A stretch of DNA of 64,000 nucleotides from an uncultured Candidatus Saccharibacteria bacterium (lineage in GTDB: Bacteria > Patescibacteriota > Minisyncoccia > Phycocordibacterales > UBA9973), in contig CAZCXF010000001.1 in NCBI GenBank assembly GCA_964502615.1, positions 50,722 to 114,721 on the forward strand, in the 5' to 3' direction. A model generated the notes under the pieces. That model was not told the origin of the DNA. It made no database searches and was given only the letters and a program-made list of their open reading frames with translations. The position numbers and the translations under genes are program-made. Of this stretch, positions 1,561 to 57,811 are shown in pieces. The stretch's first letter is position 1. Each line of letters opens with the position of its first letter.

Positions 1561-3450
1561 ATGTCAAAAATAATAGGTATAGATTTAGGTACAACAAATA
1601 GTGCAGTAGCAATTATCGAAGGTGGTCAACCAAAGATCATTGAAAACGTTGAGGGTGCAAGAACAACACCATCAATAGTTGCCATTGGTAAAAATGGTGA
1701 TCGTTTGGTAGGTCTACTTGCGAAGCGTCAAGCTGTTACAAATCCACAAAATACAATCTATGGTATCAAGCGCTTCATGGGCCACATGTTTGAAGATCCT
1801 GAAATCCAGAAATCACAAAAAACAGCTCCATTTAAAATACAAAAAGGTAAAGATGGTGGAGTTGAAGTAAATATTGGTGACAAATGGAACCGTCCAGAAG
1901 AAATTTCTGCGATGATTCTTGCAAAAATAAAAGCAGATGTAGAAGCAAAACTAGGTGAGAAAATCACAGAGGCGATTATTACTGTACCTGCATATTTCAA
2001 TGATGCGCAGAGAAAAGCTACAAAAGATGCGGGTGCAATCGCAGGTCTTGATGTAAAACGTATTATCAATGAGCCGACAGCTGCAGCCCTTGCATATGGA
2101 TTCAATACTAAAAAAGATGAGAAGATTGTAGTGTATGACTTCGGAGGTGGAACCTTCGACGTATCAGTGCTTGAAGTTTCAAACGATGTTATCGAAGTTA
2201 AATCTACTGATGGTGACTCACACATGGGAGGTCGTGATATTGATCAGAAAATTATTTCTTGGATTGCAGATGAATTCAAGAAAAGTTCAGGTGTAGATAT
2301 TACTAAAGACCCACTTGCACTTCAGCGTCTAGATGAAGCAGCTGAAAAAGCAAAGATCGAGCTCTCAACTACCCCAGAAACTGAAATCAACATTCCATTT
2401 ATCACTTCAACAGACGCAGGTCCTCAGCACTTATTGATCAAAATGACTCGCGCAACACTTGAGAGTTTAGCTCAAGAATATATTGATCGTTCTATCGAGA
2501 TCACAAAGCGCGCAATGGAAGCATCACCATTTAAGATGAGTGAAATAAATGAAATCATAATGGTAGGAGGTCAAACTCGTATGCCTGCGATAGTTGAAGC
2601 AGTAAAGAAACTTTTCAATAAAGAACCAAACCGCTCAATCAATCCAGATGAAGTCGTAGCTCTTGGTGCAGCAGTACAAGCTGGAGTACTTCAAGGTGAT
2701 GTTAAGGATGTATTGCTTCTAGATGTTATTCCTCTATCTCTTGGAATTGAAACTCTTGGAGGAGTGGCTACAAAGCTTGTAGAGCGTAATACGACAATAC
2801 CTAGCTCAAAGAGCCAAGTATTCTCAACAGCTGCTGACAATCAGACATCTGTTGAAATCCATATTACTCAAGGTGAACGTCCAATGGCATCTGACAACAA
2901 ATCTCTTGGAAGATTTATCTTAGACGGAATTCCACCTGCTCCACGAGGTATGCCACAAATTGAAGTTACATTTGATGTGGATGCAAATGGAATCCTAAAT
3001 GTGAAAGCTAAAGATAAAGCGTCTGGTAAAGAGCAATCAATTCGTATCGAAGCATCATCTGGACTTACTGATGCTGATATAAAGAAAATGCAAGCAGATG
3101 CAGAAGCTCATGCTGAAGAAGATGCTAAAAAGAAAGCACTTGTAGATGAAAAAAATACTGCAGAAATGATGATATTCTCTGCAGAAAAATCTTTGAAAGA
3201 ATATGGCGACAAGATTGACGCATCACTTAAAACAAGTGTGGAAGAAAAGATTGCTGCTGTAAAAACAGCAAAAGATGGATCAGATATTGAAGCTATCAAA
3301 TCTGCACTCGAAGCTCTTACAACAGAAGTTTCAAAAATAGGTGAAGCTATGTCTAAACAAGGTGATGCAGGTGCAACAAACACAACAGCTGAACCACAAA
3401 GTGAAGAAATAAAGGATGCAGAAACAAAGGAGAATACAGATAATAAATAA
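1561..3450 (+). CDS. dnaK: molecular chaperone DnaK (Hsp70)
   Basis: [13 protein letters not shown] and [10 protein letters not shown] motifs. Full-length 629 aa Hsp70. Confidence 0.97.
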
Positions 3451-3470
3451 AATTATGATAATATAATTTT

Positions 3471-4556
3471 ATGGCAAAAGATTACTACGAAACATTAGGA
3501 GTATCAAAAAATGCTTCTAAAGATGAAATAAAAAAAGCCTTCCACAAGATGGCGCATAAATACCACCCAGATAAAAATAAGGGTGATGATTCGAAGTTCA
3601 AGGAAGTGAACCAAGCCTATCAAACACTCTCAGACGACCAAAAACGGGCTCAATACGATCGTTTTGGAGCAGATGGACCTCAGGGATTCAATCCTGGAGC
3701 GGGAGGTGGATTTGGAGGTTTCGATTTCTCAGGGTTCCAAAATGGAAACGGAGTAGAATTTGATATGGGAGATCTTGGAGATATATTTGGAGATTTCTTT
3801 GGAGGTGGAATGGGTCGCGGTGGAAGCAAGGCTCGCAGAGGAAGAGATATTTCAACAGAAATAGATCTATCATTTGAAGATTCAATCTTCGGAGTTACTC
3901 GCACCATTTTACTTTCTAAGCAATCCATCTGTGATATCTGTAAAGGTTCAGGTGGAAAACCTGGGACAAAGATGGACACTTGTAAGACTTGTAACGGCAA
4001 CGGACAAATTCGCGAAATGAAGCGCTCAATACTTGGAACATTTCAAACAACCAAAACTTGTGATACTTGTCATGGTCAAGGAAAAATTCCAAGTGAAAAA
4101 TGTACTGAGTGTAATGGCAAAGGTGTTCGCAATAAACAGGAAGAAATCGAACTCAAAATTCCAGCAGGTATAAATGCAGGTGAGATGCTCCGAATGACAG
4201 GCGCGGGTGAGGCTATTCAAGGAGGACAGGCTGGAGATCTATATATCAAAGTAAATGTTAAATCTCATCCATTGTTTAAGCGTGATGGGCTAAATCTAAA
4301 TCTAGATATAAAGATAAATCTAAGTGATGCATTACTTGGAATGAATTACAATCTAAAAACTCTTGAGGGCAACACTCTTGAAGTCAAAATCCCAGAGGGG
4401 ATAAATCATGGAGAATTGCTAAGAGTAAAAGGTAAGGGCGTACCATCTAGTCGTGGACGTGGAGATATTATTATCCGAGTACTTATCAAGATGCCAACCA
4501 AGCTTTCTAAAAAATCTAAAGAATTAATCGAGAAATTAAAACAAGAGGGAATATAA
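3471..4556 (+). CDS. dnaJ: co-chaperone DnaJ
   Basis: J-domain with HPD (KYHPDKN), a G/F-rich linker and four CxxCxGxG zinc-finger repeats. It follows dnaK. Confidence 0.95.
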   Translation: MAKDYYETLGVSKNASKDEIKKAFHKMAHKYHPDKNKGDDSKFKEVNQAYQTLSDDQKRAQYDRFGADGPQGFNPGAGGGFGGFDFSGFQNGNGVEFDMGDLGDIFGDFFGGGMGRGGSKARRGRDISTEIDLSFEDSIFGVTRTILLSKQSICDICKGSGGKPGTKMDTCKTCNGNGQIREMKRSILGTFQTTKTCDTCHGQGKIPSEKCTECNGKGVRNKQEEIELKIPAGINAGEMLRMTGAGEAIQGGQAGDLYIKVNVKSHPLFKRDGLNLNLDIKINLSDALLGMNYNLKTLEGNTLEVKIPEGINHGELLRVKGKGVPSSRGRGDIIIRVLIKMPTKLSKKSKELIEKLKQEGI

Positions 4557-4564
4557 GTTTCCAC

Positions 4565-53038: not shown

Positions 53039-53058
53039 AGTTATCCACAGATTTTTTC

Positions 53059-53087
53059 TTGACTGTGAACGCTCGTTCACATATACT
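53059..53087 (+). promoter_or_regulatory. sigma70-type promoter TTGACT-N17-TATACT with LexA (Cheo-type) box GAACGCTCGTTC in the spacer
   Basis: -35 TTGACT at 53059-53064 and -10 TATACT at 53082-53087 with a 17-nt spacer. GAAC-N4-GTTC at 53067-53078 sits within the palindrome tgtgaacgctcgttcaca. Confidence 0.65.
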
Positions 53088-53126: not shown

Positions 53127-53333
53127 ATGAATAGAGAACAATACATAAAGATAATAGAGAGAGAGCTACAAGCTCTAAATAAGAGGATCGATATGAAGAT
53201 TCTCCAAGGTGTCGAATACAAGCGTGAGGCTCGTGACCACAAAATACTACAAAAGAAAATGATGCAACACTCACGCAAGGGTTTCTTCAATAAATTTCTA
53301 ACCGCAGTGCCTCAATTTATGATATTCTTTTAA
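53127..53333 (+). CDS. small basic protein (68 aa) between the SOS promoter and lexA
   Basis: The ORF occupies the entire gap between the LexA-box promoter and lexA. It has a helical, charged N-terminus and a hydrophobic C-terminal tail. Confidence 0.35.
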   Translation: MNREQYIKIIERELQALNKRIDMKILQGVEYKREARDHKILQKKMMQHSRKGFFNKFLTAVPQFMIFF

Positions 53334-53336
53334 TAT

Positions 53337-53903
53337 ATGCAAAACGATTACAAAGCAAAACTCCAATCTTTCTATGAGCGTGAGAAACGTATGCCTACAT
53401 ACACAGAGATGATGAAACTTTTTGGATTCAAATCCAAAAATGCTGTCGCTCGACTTGTAGATAAATTCATTGATGCTGGTATCGCAACAAAAGACCATCT
53501 TGGTAGACTTATCCCAAGTGGCTCTTTTGATAATATACCTCTCCTTGGTTCTGTTACTGCAGGTTTTCCTGTGGATGTTGAAGAAGAAATGAAAGAAGTA
53601 GTAAATCTAGATAATTACTTAGTAGGCAAGAAAGAAAATACTTTCATGCTTGAAGTGGATGGCAATTCCATGATCGATGCTCATATAGCAGATGGTGACA
53701 TGGTGCTTGTTGAAAAAACAGATAGAGCTCAAGACGGGGACATAGTTATCGCGAATGTAGATGGAGAATTCACTATGAAATATTTTAAAAAAGATGGTAA
53801 CAAAGTTTGGTTAGAACCAGCTAATAAAGACTTCAAGCCAATACATCCTAAACAATATCTACACATCAATGCAGTTGTGAAAGCTGTCATACGAAAGTAT
53901 TAA
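53337..53903 (+). CDS. lexA: LexA repressor (S24 peptidase)
   Basis: N-terminal wHTH, the cleavage-site region, Ser nucleophile GNSM and Lys in TMKYF. Confidence 0.9.
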   Translation: MQNDYKAKLQSFYEREKRMPTYTEMMKLFGFKSKNAVARLVDKFIDAGIATKDHLGRLIPSGSFDNIPLLGSVTAGFPVDVEEEMKEVVNLDNYLVGKKENTFMLEVDGNSMIDAHIADGDMVLVEKTDRAQDGDIVIANVDGEFTMKYFKKDGNKVWLEPANKDFKPIHPKQYLHINAVVKAVIRKY

Positions 53904-53915
53904 GAATTTTGAGTT

Positions 53916-54779
53916 ATGGAAGAAATCGAATATAATAAAATTATGCCAGTCTATATTAAACAACAAAAGCCAAGCAAAATTTTAGCTGATGTTGAACTTA
54001 AACCTTACTTTAAAGACAAAGAATTTGTTTTGTATAATGGGGATTCATTACTACTTTTAGAACAATTACCAGAAAATTCTGTAGATATGATATTCGCAGA
54101 TCCACCCTATAACCTTTCTAATGGTGGTTTTACTGTACATGCTGGGCGTATGGTTAGTGTAAATAAAGGTATTTGGGACATAAGTAATGGATTTGAAAAT
54201 GATTATGCTTTCCATTATAAGTGGCTTGAAGCTTGTAAAAGAGTATTAAAACCAGGAGGTACATTGTGGGTTAGTGGAACATATCATTCGATTTATCAGT
54301 GTGGACATGCGCTCCAGGCACTTAATTATCACATATTAAACGATATTTCATGGTTTAAACCTAATGCATCACCAAATTTAAGTTGCCGATTTTTTACAGC
54401 AAGTCACGAAACAATAATTTGGGCTAGAAAAGAAAAGAAAGCAAAACATACTTTTAATTACAAAGAAATGAAAGAGGGTAATTGGCCAGAGGATAAACTA
54501 AAAAAACCAGGTTTGCAAATGAGATCTGTTTGGTCAATAGGAACTCCAAAACCTAATGAAAAAAAATTTGGTAAACACCCTACACAAAAACCAATAGACC
54601 TACTTAAGAGAATTATTCTTGCAAGTACTAATAAGGGTGATGTGATTATCGATCCATTCACAGGAAGCTCAACTACAGGTATAGTAGCTGCCATGCATGG
54701 AAGGAAATTCATTGGGATAGATACTGATAAGAAATTCCTTGATCTCTCTATTAAAAGATTTAAGAACTTAAATAAATAA
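53916..54779 (+). CDS. beta-class N6-adenine/N4-cytosine DNA methyltransferase
   Basis: Motif IV DPPY (FADPPYN) lies N-terminal to motif I (IIDPFTGSSTTG), the beta-class order. ParB-like/N6_N4_Mtase family. Confidence 0.88.
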   Translation: MEEIEYNKIMPVYIKQQKPSKILADVELKPYFKDKEFVLYNGDSLLLLEQLPENSVDMIFADPPYNLSNGGFTVHAGRMVSVNKGIWDISNGFENDYAFHYKWLEACKRVLKPGGTLWVSGTYHSIYQCGHALQALNYHILNDISWFKPNASPNLSCRFFTASHETIIWARKEKKAKHTFNYKEMKEGNWPEDKLKKPGLQMRSVWSIGTPKPNEKKFGKHPTQKPIDLLKRIILASTNKGDVIIDPFTGSSTTGIVAAMHGRKFIGIDTDKKFLDLSIKRFKNLNK

Positions 54780-54780
54780 A

Positions 54781-55305
54781 ATGAAAGAAAAAGGTATAGG
54801 TGGTGCAAATACTCAAACTGGTATAAAATTTGAAAGAAAAATTAATCTTCTTAGATTTATATCGAGTTTAAAAGGGTATAAAGTTAAGAAAAATAAAATA
54901 TTTTACGAAAATAAAGAAGTTGCTAGAAGTTACGCAAAAAATAGTTTATATAATTACTTAAAAGAAAGTGGTGTAGATTACACAAAAGTACTTTCAAAAA
55001 AACTACTACCTGATGAAGCTATATATGTCATTGTTAATAACACATTGTTTGTAATTGAAATGAAATTTCAAAAAGTTGCTGGTTCTGTGGATGAAAAATT
55101 GCAAACTTGCGATTTCAAGAAAAAACAATATCAAAAACTTATGTCACAAATTAATATAGATGTGCATTATATTTACATACTAAGTGACTGGTTTAAAAAA
55201 CCTCAATATAAAGATACCTTGGACTATATTATTTCTGTTGGGTGTCAATATTACTTTGAATATCTACCATTAAAACAAATAGGTATGCCCGTACCAAAAA
55301 AATAA
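54781..55305 (+). CDS. candidate type II restriction endonuclease (PD-ExK-like)
   Basis: The start abuts the MTase stop by 1 nt. A possible PD...ExK catalytic motif occurs (LPDEAIYVI...VIEMKFQK). Confidence 0.4.
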   Translation: MKEKGIGGANTQTGIKFERKINLLRFISSLKGYKVKKNKIFYENKEVARSYAKNSLYNYLKESGVDYTKVLSKKLLPDEAIYVIVNNTLFVIEMKFQKVAGSVDEKLQTCDFKKKQYQKLMSQINIDVHYIYILSDWFKKPQYKDTLDYIISVGCQYYFEYLPLKQIGMPVPKK

Positions 55306-55333
55306 TTATATAATTTTTGTTAAATTAATTTAC

Positions 55334-55609
55334 ATGAAAAAAGTTAAGGAACTCAGTTTATTTACAGAGAGAGTTTTAAATATAGTTTCTAGTATTAAAA
55401 AAGGGGAGACTATGACCTATAAAGAAGTCGCTACTCGTGCAGGTAGCCCAGGGGCAGCTCGTGCTGTTGGATCTATAATGAAAGCCAATTACAGGCCTAA
55501 TGTCCCATGTCATAGGGTTATTCGCAGTGACGGTGTAATAGGACAGTACAATCGTGGTGGACAAAACGAAAAATACAGAAAGTTGAAAAGAGAAGGTGCT
55601 ATTTTGTAG
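55334..55609 (+). CDS. ogt: minimal O6-methylguanine-DNA methyltransferase (Ogt/MGMT DNA-binding domain only)
   Basis: Active-site PCHRV and HTH TYKEVATRAG. The N-terminal domain is absent. Confidence 0.85.
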   Translation: MKKVKELSLFTERVLNIVSSIKKGETMTYKEVATRAGSPGAARAVGSIMKANYRPNVPCHRVIRSDGVIGQYNRGGQNEKYRKLKREGAIL

Positions 55610-55633: not shown

Positions 55634-56182
55634 ATGAAAACAAAATTAATTTCAATCATTATAGGCCTAGTTTTAGTAGCTGGTGTTGGGACACTAGTAT
55701 ACAAAACAAAGCAACCAGTTGTATTGCCTTCTGAAGATATTACAAATAGTGGATCTACTCTAAACAACAATACAAATGACACACAAAATCAATTACCAGT
55801 AAAAAGTACTACCCCAACAACATCTGTTAAAAAATCTTGGTTTGATGACGACGATGATGACGATGAAGAAGATGGTGGTGGTACTGTTAGCACTCCAGTA
55901 GTAACCCCAAAATCTACTACAACTACCACTACAACTACAACAAGCGGTGGTATAACTCTTGCTACTATTGCAAAGCATAACAGTAGATCTAGTTGTTGGT
56001 CAGCCGTAAATGGTGGTGTATATGACCTTACAAGTTGGATTCCAAACCACCCAGGAGGTGAGCAAGCAATACTTTCCATGTGTGGAGTAGATGGCTCAAG
56101 TGGATACAATGGTCAACATGGAAGTAGTAGTAAGCCAGCTAGAATGCTTGCAGGATTTAAAATAGGTACACTTGCAAAATAA
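55634..56182 (+). CDS. membrane-anchored secreted protein with poly-Asp and poly-Thr linkers and C-terminal cytochrome b5-like heme-binding domain
   Basis: N-terminal TM, DDDDDDDEED and TTTTTTTTT low-complexity runs, then HNSRSSCWSAVNGGVYDLTSWIPNHPGG (cyt b5 HPGG motif) and a second His in GQHGSS. Confidence 0.65.
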   Translation: MKTKLISIIIGLVLVAGVGTLVYKTKQPVVLPSEDITNSGSTLNNNTNDTQNQLPVKSTTPTTSVKKSWFDDDDDDDEEDGGGTVSTPVVTPKSTTTTTTTTTSGGITLATIAKHNSRSSCWSAVNGGVYDLTSWIPNHPGGEQAILSMCGVDGSSGYNGQHGSSSKPARMLAGFKIGTLAK

Positions 56183-57782: not shown

Positions 57783-57811
57783 GCCCGGAGTAACATCCGG
57801 GCTATTTTTTT
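57783..57811 (+). terminator. GC-rich rho-independent terminator gcccgga...tccgggc + T8
   Basis: 7-bp GC stem followed by TATTTTTTT. Confidence 0.75.

Follow-up and report, generated by a model that had tools for sequence, protein, structure and literature searches.

Among the described systems, the closest to the locus reported here are the restriction-modification (R-M) systems of the DpnII/LlaDCHI/MboI group, represented by dpnM-dpnA-dpnB of Streptococcus pneumoniae and by the Lactococcus lactis plasmid pSRQ700. In this gene order a D12-class methylase (DpnM) precedes a beta-class second methylase (DpnA) and the endonuclease, and both DpnII and LlaDCHI are specific for GATC. Beta-class enzymes are also found among the GANTC-specific methylases, namely M.HinfI and CcrM, the latter being a cell-cycle orphan methylase. 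In Neisseria, the leuS/dam/drg (NgoAXI) locus has been assigned to GATC and the gonococcal methylase homologue is described as "DpnIIB-like" (PMC4269198, PMC6789123), and Drg of the same locus cuts methylated GATC (PMC4269198). The present work deals with a methylase-nuclease gene pair located directly downstream of lexA in a 64,000-nucleotide (nt) stretch of DNA from an uncultured Candidatus Saccharibacteria bacterium (hereafter the window; contig CAZCXF010000001.1, positions 50,722 to 114,721). The pair probably constitutes a horizontally acquired, self-contained Type II R-M cassette with its own promoter and probable GATC specificity, inserted exactly between the lexA stop codon and the ogt start codon of a LexA-autoregulated operon in the tiny, Paceibacteria/Nomurabacteria-like genome of a member of the Patescibacteria. 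The R-M system itself is of an ordinary kind. Its components are the following:

53904..55333, plus strand: inserted cassette of 1430 base pairs (bp), comprising promoter, methylase gene, nuclease gene and a 28-nt tail
53909..53936, plus strand: putative cassette promoter, TTGAGT-16-TATAAT, with the ATG at 53943 located 6 nt past the -10 element (leaderless)
53943..54779, plus strand: beta-class N6-adenine DNA methyltransferase, DpnA/LlaDCHI-B-like, 278 amino acids (aa) from the conserved start
54781..55305, plus strand: 174-aa PD-(D/E)XK nuclease, probable restriction endonuclease, with the catalytic candidates E18, D78, E93 and K95

An initial annotation of the window had described a beta-class DPPY methylase followed 1 nt later by a 174-aa open reading frame (ORF), directly 3' of lexA, and both ORFs are found as described, on the plus strand. 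The methylase matches PF01555 (1.1e-58) and the PADLOC model MTase_II for Type II methylases (2e-97), and its DPPY motif (residues 62-65, nt 54099-54110) and its motif I (DPFTGSSTTG) occupy positions that are invariant in the methylase alignment. The longest ORF (53916-54779, 287 aa) begins at the first in-frame ATG at 53916. The closest homologues, which share 86-89% identity and are 277-278 aa long, begin with MPV or MVV at the position of Met10 of the window protein, that is at ATG 53943, and the methylase most likely comprises 278 aa from this codon. Since the closest homologues start at the equivalent of Met10, the gap between lexA and the methylase gene is probably 39 nt, with a promoter-like element inside, rather than the 12 nt given earlier on the basis of the extended ORF call. 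In the window the enzyme is not fused to LexA, as the TAA stop codon of lexA is followed by a further in-frame stop, TGA, within the spacer. The nuclease gene starts 1 nt after the methylase stop codon on the same strand, close enough for a possible translational coupling, and because the genes are only 1 nt apart the ratio of nuclease to methylase should stay constant. In two other loci (L158 4365-4979 and L161 4317-4931) the place of the nuclease family downstream of the closest methylase homologues (86-89%) is taken by an unrelated protein of 204 aa. Genes of the TraG-like and MazE-like kinds occur in the same region, and an exchange of the nuclease module is possible there.

The product of the second gene, 174 aa in length, is very likely a restriction endonuclease. 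It contains the motif P77-D78 ... E93-x-K95, the four named residues of which are invariant across 40 aligned homologues, as are E18 and a GSVDEKLQTCD block, and the PD...ExK arrangement is retained in distant homologues of Neisseria and Leuconostoc; the PD-ExK signature, regarded as plausible in the initial annotation, is thereby substantiated. Structure prediction, proposed at that time as a check against nuclease folds, points in the same direction. In the AlphaFold model (predicted local distance difference test, pLDDT, 80.6; predicted template modelling score, pTM, 0.77) D78 immediately precedes a strand and E93-x-K95 closes the following one, which corresponds to the canonical geometry, and with this model Foldseek retrieves cap-snatching endonucleases, Hjc and XisH, all of which are PD-(D/E)XK proteins and not of a non-nuclease fold. 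Searches of solved-structure sequences, with the nuclease alone as well as in the form of a profile, returned nothing meaningful, and no homologue was found in the phage collection searched. Homologues at E <= 0.001 number 6726, and the best 120 of these 6726 are 69-100% identical, derive mostly from Patescibacteria and are unnamed or termed "hypothetical". The nuclease family thus is uncharacterised, very large and widespread. The sequence of the window protein itself recurs identically on 18 contigs from several samples, with the same gene arrangement.

The assignment as a restriction endonuclease is by far the best reading because of the fold and the mobile pairing with a methylase taken together. 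With the nuclease profile 80 metagenome loci were collected, 70 of them with enough upstream sequence, and in 54 of the latter a methylase homologue ends at most 200 nt before the nuclease start; in 7 more it lies nearby. The methylase-endonuclease coupling proposed earlier is in this way reproduced in many unrelated contexts, among them rpsG/fusA in Levyibacteria, sites beside integrases and a site beside a GmrSD-like gene. In the Levyibacteria locus (L009 3154-4522) the same cassette lies between rpsG and fusA, within the str ribosomal-protein operon. Distant nuclease homologues that keep PD...ExK pair with another methylase class, D12, as on a Leuconostoc plasmid, where such a homologue follows a DpnM-like D12 methylase. 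Separate adjacent methylase and nuclease genes, methylase motifs IV and I, and a nuclease active site and fold are all present, and the pair is accordingly classified, from these sequence features and the predicted fold, as a putative Type II (IIP-like) R-M system, for which site-specific, methylation-blocked cleavage is predicted.

Compared with the DpnII/LlaDCHI/MboI group, the window methylase resembles the DpnA-like beta-class second methylase of pSRQ700, whereas the cassette lacks a DpnM-like first methylase, and the 174-aa nuclease is unrelated in sequence to the DpnII/MboI type, the annotated endonuclease of pSRQ700 having 304 aa. The Neisseria leuS/dam/drg locus harbors a pair like that of the window, with a beta-class methylase (53% identity) and, behind it, a homologue of the window nuclease (46% identity). 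Contrary to the intact window genes, both are frameshifted and stand beside Drg, and no lexA is involved. In N. gonorrhoeae CP119140, a 2.17-Mb record of the plasmid collection which apparently represents the chromosome, the frameshifted methylase and the nuclease homologue lie 3' of leuS and drg (L071 3291-4444), and the record has no annotated feature for the nuclease homologue.

The insertion itself can be traced by comparison with related lexA loci. Species-representative genomes were scanned with LexA, and the 55 orthologous loci obtained belong to Paceibacteria, Nomurabacteria and related lineages; a methylase or nuclease gene of this kind is absent from the 5 kb around lexA in every one of them. 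In the loci closest to the window, L015 (91% LexA identity) and L016 (86%), the sequence reads lexA-TAA-T-ATG-ogt; the genes farther 3' match the order of the window in L016, and L015 is without the cytochrome b5 and DoxX genes. Because of these empty sites, window positions 53904-55333 are regarded as an insert that replaced a single T. The pair is accordingly not taken for an integral, SOS-designed part of the lexA operon, being a 1430-bp insert absent from the two closest relatives. The GC content of the nuclease gene is 25-28%, compared with about 35-40% around it, and on this comparative evidence the cassette appears as a horizontally acquired element. In the relatives ogt is placed 1 nt after lexA, to which it would have been translationally coupled before the insertion; it now follows the insert. 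A remnant of a duplication of the lexA 3' end was sought after the window nuclease gene and was not found.

A lineage-specific insertion of this kind could also be a decaying remnant, in which the nuclease or the methylase is inactive and which is carried along since the downstream ogt genes need transcription through it. The frameshifts in both Neisseria homologues would fit such a fate. In the window, however, neither ORF is disrupted, no catalytic residue and hardly any family-invariant residue is missing, and the identity of the nuclease sequence on the 18 contigs from several samples likewise speaks against decay, so that this explanation is highly improbable.

The 39 nt after lexA most likely constitute a promoter. 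Positions 53909-53945 read TTGAGT-16 nt-TATAAT-6 nt-ATG, and the closest methylase homologues, which reside in unrelated contexts without lexA, are preceded by the homologous arrangement TTGAAT-17-TATAAT-6-ATG. The similarity of the window to the upstream DNA of these homologues begins right past the lexA stop codon, and the arrangement TGnTAnAAT-6-ATG before the methylase start is common to 9 other cassettes. The element contains no LexA box. Throughout the window, a perfect TATAAT is found 5-7 nt 5' of the ATG in 8 of 70 long ORFs, as compared with 9 of 1251 when all plus-strand ATGs are considered. Leaderless starts with an extended -10 element (TGnTATAAT, 5-7 nt, ATG) are frequent in the window. 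From this sigma-70-type promoter a leaderless methylase mRNA beginning at ATG 53943 would be transcribed, and since the cassette has a promoter of its own, the basal expression of methylase and nuclease should be independent of LexA. The nuclease would cut the site that the methylase recognises, most probably GATC, when it is unmethylated.

Concerning the target site, the window methylase aligns over its full length with the second methylase of pSRQ700 LlaDCHI (52% identity, E 1e-93) and is 53% identical to the methylase of the Neisseria NgoAXI locus, compared with 45-46% identity to CcrM-like enzymes. A DpnM-like methylase stands 5' of the beta-class methylase in 5 of 48 distinct cassettes, corresponding to the DpnII gene order, and after a LexA::methylase fusion in one related locus (L156, see below) a MutH-family protein takes the place of the nuclease. 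Judged from these relationships, the target is somewhat more probably GATC than GANTC. Recognition of GANTC in the manner of HinfI and CcrM would be consistent with the finding that CcrM is both the best relative of solved structure (6pbd, 4.3e-55) and the top NCBIfam match of the methylase (NF050803, 244 bits), and the beta-class fold and motif order are indeed shared with CcrM and M.HinfI. Against this stand the score, which is far below the family cutoff of 830 and covers only model positions 6-250 of 350, the absence of the CcrM C-terminal domain from the window methylase, the higher identity to the LlaDCHI and NgoAXI-locus enzymes, and the partners, as both the DpnM-like methylases and the one MutH-like alternative nuclease belong to GATC families. 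GANTC specificity is therefore considered unlikely.

Several points weigh against the reading of the pair as a self-contained, GATC-specific Type II cassette. The margin between the identities to the GATC-type (52-53%) and the GANTC-type enzymes (45-46%) is small. Neither site is avoided in the window, with observed-to-expected ratios of 0.89 for GATC and 1.09 for GANTC, and only GGTACC is low (1 observed, 7.3 expected); site avoidance is uninformative on the target because the window is too short and the acquisition may be recent. Promoter-like matches number 30 in the AT-rich window, against 24 expected from shuffled sequences, and because such matches are common in AT-rich DNA the internal promoter draws its support from conservation across cassettes and not from the scan. 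For the nuclease, the sole Pfam match at E <= 0.01 is PDDEXK_11, with a sub-threshold score of 19.3 bits (cutoff 23.7), and neither NCBIfam nor PADLOC holds a model for the 174-aa protein. The initial annotation had called the endonuclease assignment weak, which still applies to the library match and no longer to the assignment as a whole, now much stronger by virtue of the invariant motif, the predicted fold and the pairing. Finally, the overall reading rests on sequence and a predicted fold, from which the activities, the target site, the transcription starts and the read-through described below are all deduced.

The operon that received the cassette is defined by the following features:

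53041..53049, plus strand: perfect DnaA box, TTATCCACA, 5' of the lexA operon promoter
53059..53087, plus strand: lexA operon promoter, TTGACT-17-TATACT, with the LexA box inside the spacer
53064-53081: LexA box, TGTGAACGCTCGTTCACA, an 18-bp palindrome with the core GAAC-N4-GTTC at 53067-53078, in the spacer between the -35 and -10 elements
53127..53333, plus strand: orf68, a small ORF of 68 aa, first gene of the lexA operon
53337..53903, plus strand: lexA, 188 aa, with the Ala-Gly cleavage site and the Ser and Lys residues all present
55334..55609, plus strand: short Ogt/MGMT-like protein of 91 aa with a PCHRV active site
57783..57802, plus strand: terminator-like hairpin of 6 G-C pairs followed by a T run, the first strong one downstream and likely the end of the operon

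LexA scores 140.7 bits against TIGR00498 (cutoff 110.95) and matches Peptidase_S24 (8.9e-31). The core GAAC-N4-GTTC, which we take to be a LexA box of the Gram-positive type, is present 5' of lexA in 49 of 54 orthologous loci. The DnaA box TTATCCACA was examined upstream of lexA in the window and in L016-L069. In 43 of 54 orthologous loci it precedes the LexA box by 26+/-1 nt, and this position accounts for 45 of the 50 perfect DnaA boxes that occur in 478 kb of orthologous lexA loci. This placement suggests a DnaA input into lexA transcription in these bacteria. A DnaA box also precedes the LexA::methylase fusion genes in L109, L156, L157, L164 and L167. A homologue of orf68 lies directly 5' of lexA in nearly all of the 55 related loci, and searches of Pfam and NCBIfam gave zero matches; orf68 is an uncharacterised partner of LexA. 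The same operon encodes a cytochrome b5-like protein (55634-56182) with a long low-complexity linker containing runs of D, E and T, the gene for which is kept after ogt in L016.

The genes from the lexA operon promoter to the hairpin at 57783 are all co-directional and separated by short gaps. The absence of a terminator after lexA, remarked upon in the initial annotation, is confirmed, as the scan found no terminator-like site between lexA and the methylase gene, and a promoter scan of the 28 nt 5' of the ogt start yielded zero promoter-like sites. With no terminator behind lexA and no separate promoter-like site for ogt, transcription initiated at the LexA-boxed promoter should extend across the methylase and nuclease genes as well and would add a DNA-damage-inducible component to their expression. 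The SOS-coupled control proposed at first consequently survives in part: the LexA operator at the operon promoter and the uninterrupted passage into the cassette agree with it, whereas the cassette is an insert with its own promoter and is reached from the operon promoter by read-through only. In terms of these sequence signals, SOS control would be at most a read-through overlay on constitutive expression.

The vicinity to lexA is not restricted to the window. In L097, which belongs to a LexA lineage 68% identical to window LexA, the order is orf-lexA-methylase-nuclease, and the pair is flanked by two copies of the lexA 3' end in direct orientation (42 bp, 5 mismatches; 3117-3158 and 4518-4559). 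The sequence past the right-hand copy matches the junction downstream of lexA in relatives, and the repeat appears to be a long target duplication at the insertion site. Insertion of R-M units with long target duplication was reportedly described by Furuta, Abe and Kobayashi in 2010; L097 resembles such cases, unlike the window, where a single base was replaced. In the nearest relatives of L097 (84% LexA identity) lexA is directly followed by a convergent HU gene, without a cassette. Vertical inheritance of lexA, methylase and nuclease, which would place all three genes in an ancestor shared by the window and L097, was considered and rejected, because closer relatives (91% and 86% LexA identity for the window, 84% for L097) have clean empty sites and because each of the two methylases clusters with a different set of cassettes located away from lexA. 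The two adjacencies look like independent gains.

In other relatives LexA and the methylase are fused. The loci concerned show the following features:

L109 2524-3993: ORF of 489 aa in which a canonical LexA continues in frame into the methylase, followed by a nuclease of the 174-aa family
L109 about 2470-2495 and L157 about 3965-3985, likewise 5' of the fusions in L155, L156, L164 and L167: direct repeat CTTTCGG-N4-CTTTCGG
L155 5498-6061, L157 5452-6018, L164 5010-5585 and L167 4458-5048, minus strand: conserved gene for a protein of about 190 aa, convergent 3' of the fusions

The architecture LexA_DNA_bind, Peptidase_S24 and N6_N4_Mtase was found in at least 120 clusters at 90% identity (P0121-P0240), which are 60-100% identical to the query, mostly 473-504 aa long (range 422-610) and derived from Parcubacteria, Woesebacteria and other bacteria of the candidate phyla radiation. 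An assembly or gene-calling artefact, considered for L109, is ruled out by this number of distinct clusters from many samples with the same architecture. The Ala-Gly site and the Ser and Lys residues are kept in at least 98% of the fusions and the linker is variable. Among six fusion contexts the nuclease family follows in L109 and L164, the MutH-like protein in L156 and nothing in L155, L157 and L167. The convergent protein is 75-81% identical between loci and gave zero Pfam matches. The promoters of the fusions contain, in addition to the DnaA box, the CTTTCGG repeat with a period of 11 adjoining the -10 element, a candidate operator distinct from the GAAC-N4-GTTC box of the window LexA type.

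Methylases of the SsoII, EcoRII and MspI type carry an N-terminal autoregulatory DNA-binding domain, and other R-M systems are controlled by C proteins. The LexA::methylase fusions likewise place a repressor domain before the methylase and a repeat operator at their own promoter. Contrary to the SsoII type, the added module is a complete self-cleaving LexA, from which repression would be released by damage, and in the window the two proteins are separate. Anti-phage defence systems under DNA-damage-responsive regulators, including WYL-domain and related proteins, have been described (PMC10693628, PMC12392091). The theme is shared, the regulators there being dedicated and adjacent, in contrast to the host lexA, which is here an operon neighbour or fusion partner. 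For the recurrent linkage, no description of LexA combined with an R-M system, or of a LexA-methyltransferase fusion, was found in the searchable literature.

It is possible, if rather doubtful, that the linkage is functional and selected, so that LexA controls the pair or at least the methylase and activation of RecA by damage or phage raises their levels; on the same tentative footing, the window would represent an early, unfused stage of an arrangement that has become fixed elsewhere as LexA::methylase fusions. LexA is the upstream neighbour in 3 of the 48 distinct cassettes, whereas cassettes landing at random in a genome of some 1000 genes would give about 0.05 (a rough estimate). The separate LexA lineage of L097, with its 42-bp duplication and its relatives lacking the cassette, the grouping of the two methylases, which points to independent gains, the retention of the self-cleavage residues in the fusion clusters and the nuclease downstream of two fusions all favour this view. 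LexA binding and RecA-stimulated self-cleavage might then conceivably gate methylation and restriction, and the methylase would have been captured repeatedly by lexA because this is useful. In the fusions, the DNA-binding domain could perhaps also be severed from the methylase by self-cleavage. In this speculative scheme the balance between methylation and restriction would shift upon damage, phage attack or entry of single-stranded DNA, the window showing the unfused first step. A parallel is offered by the pneumococcus, which has no LexA and in which dpnA is induced by competence. On the other hand, the window cassette retains a conserved promoter of its own, its methylase has no fused form among the 120 closest homologues, the nearest of which lie in contexts without lexA, and the cassette is present in none of the 55 related lexA loci. 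Moreover, three of the six fusion contexts have no nuclease before the next conserved gene and are perhaps lexA genes with a passenger domain, and a permissive, moderately expressed landing site could yield the same recurrence without any regulatory benefit.

The MutH-family protein at the position of the nuclease in L156, the lack of a nuclease partner in several fusions and the repair genes lexA and ogt next to the cassette in the window could also be taken to mean that the 174-aa protein serves as a nuclease in repair or strand discrimination rather than in defence, alongside an essentially orphan methylase, in the logic of Dam and MutH. This is very unlikely, as methylase and nuclease genes are transferred together to unrelated sites, some of them integrase-adjacent and one containing GmrSD, the repair-gene neighbourhood is due to the insertion and not ancestral, and the Neisseria copy decays along with its methylase beside a nuclease for methylated GATC, as would be expected of an R-M pair.

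The locus represents a clean before-and-after case of a probable promoter-bearing R-M unit inserted within an operon at single-base precision. Should the 174-aa protein prove to be a restriction enzyme for GATC, a classic site would gain a small enzyme not described before. Its family is abundant in uncultivated Patescibacteria, a group in which genetic work is hampered by restriction barriers. The recurrence next to lexA may reflect selection for DNA-damage control or a permissive landing site with subsequent fusion, the functional alternative being put forward only tentatively. A possible direct connection of the SOS regulator with DNA methylation or restriction in these bacteria is suggested by the recurrent linkage, and most of all by the fusions in which the residues for self-cleavage are retained.

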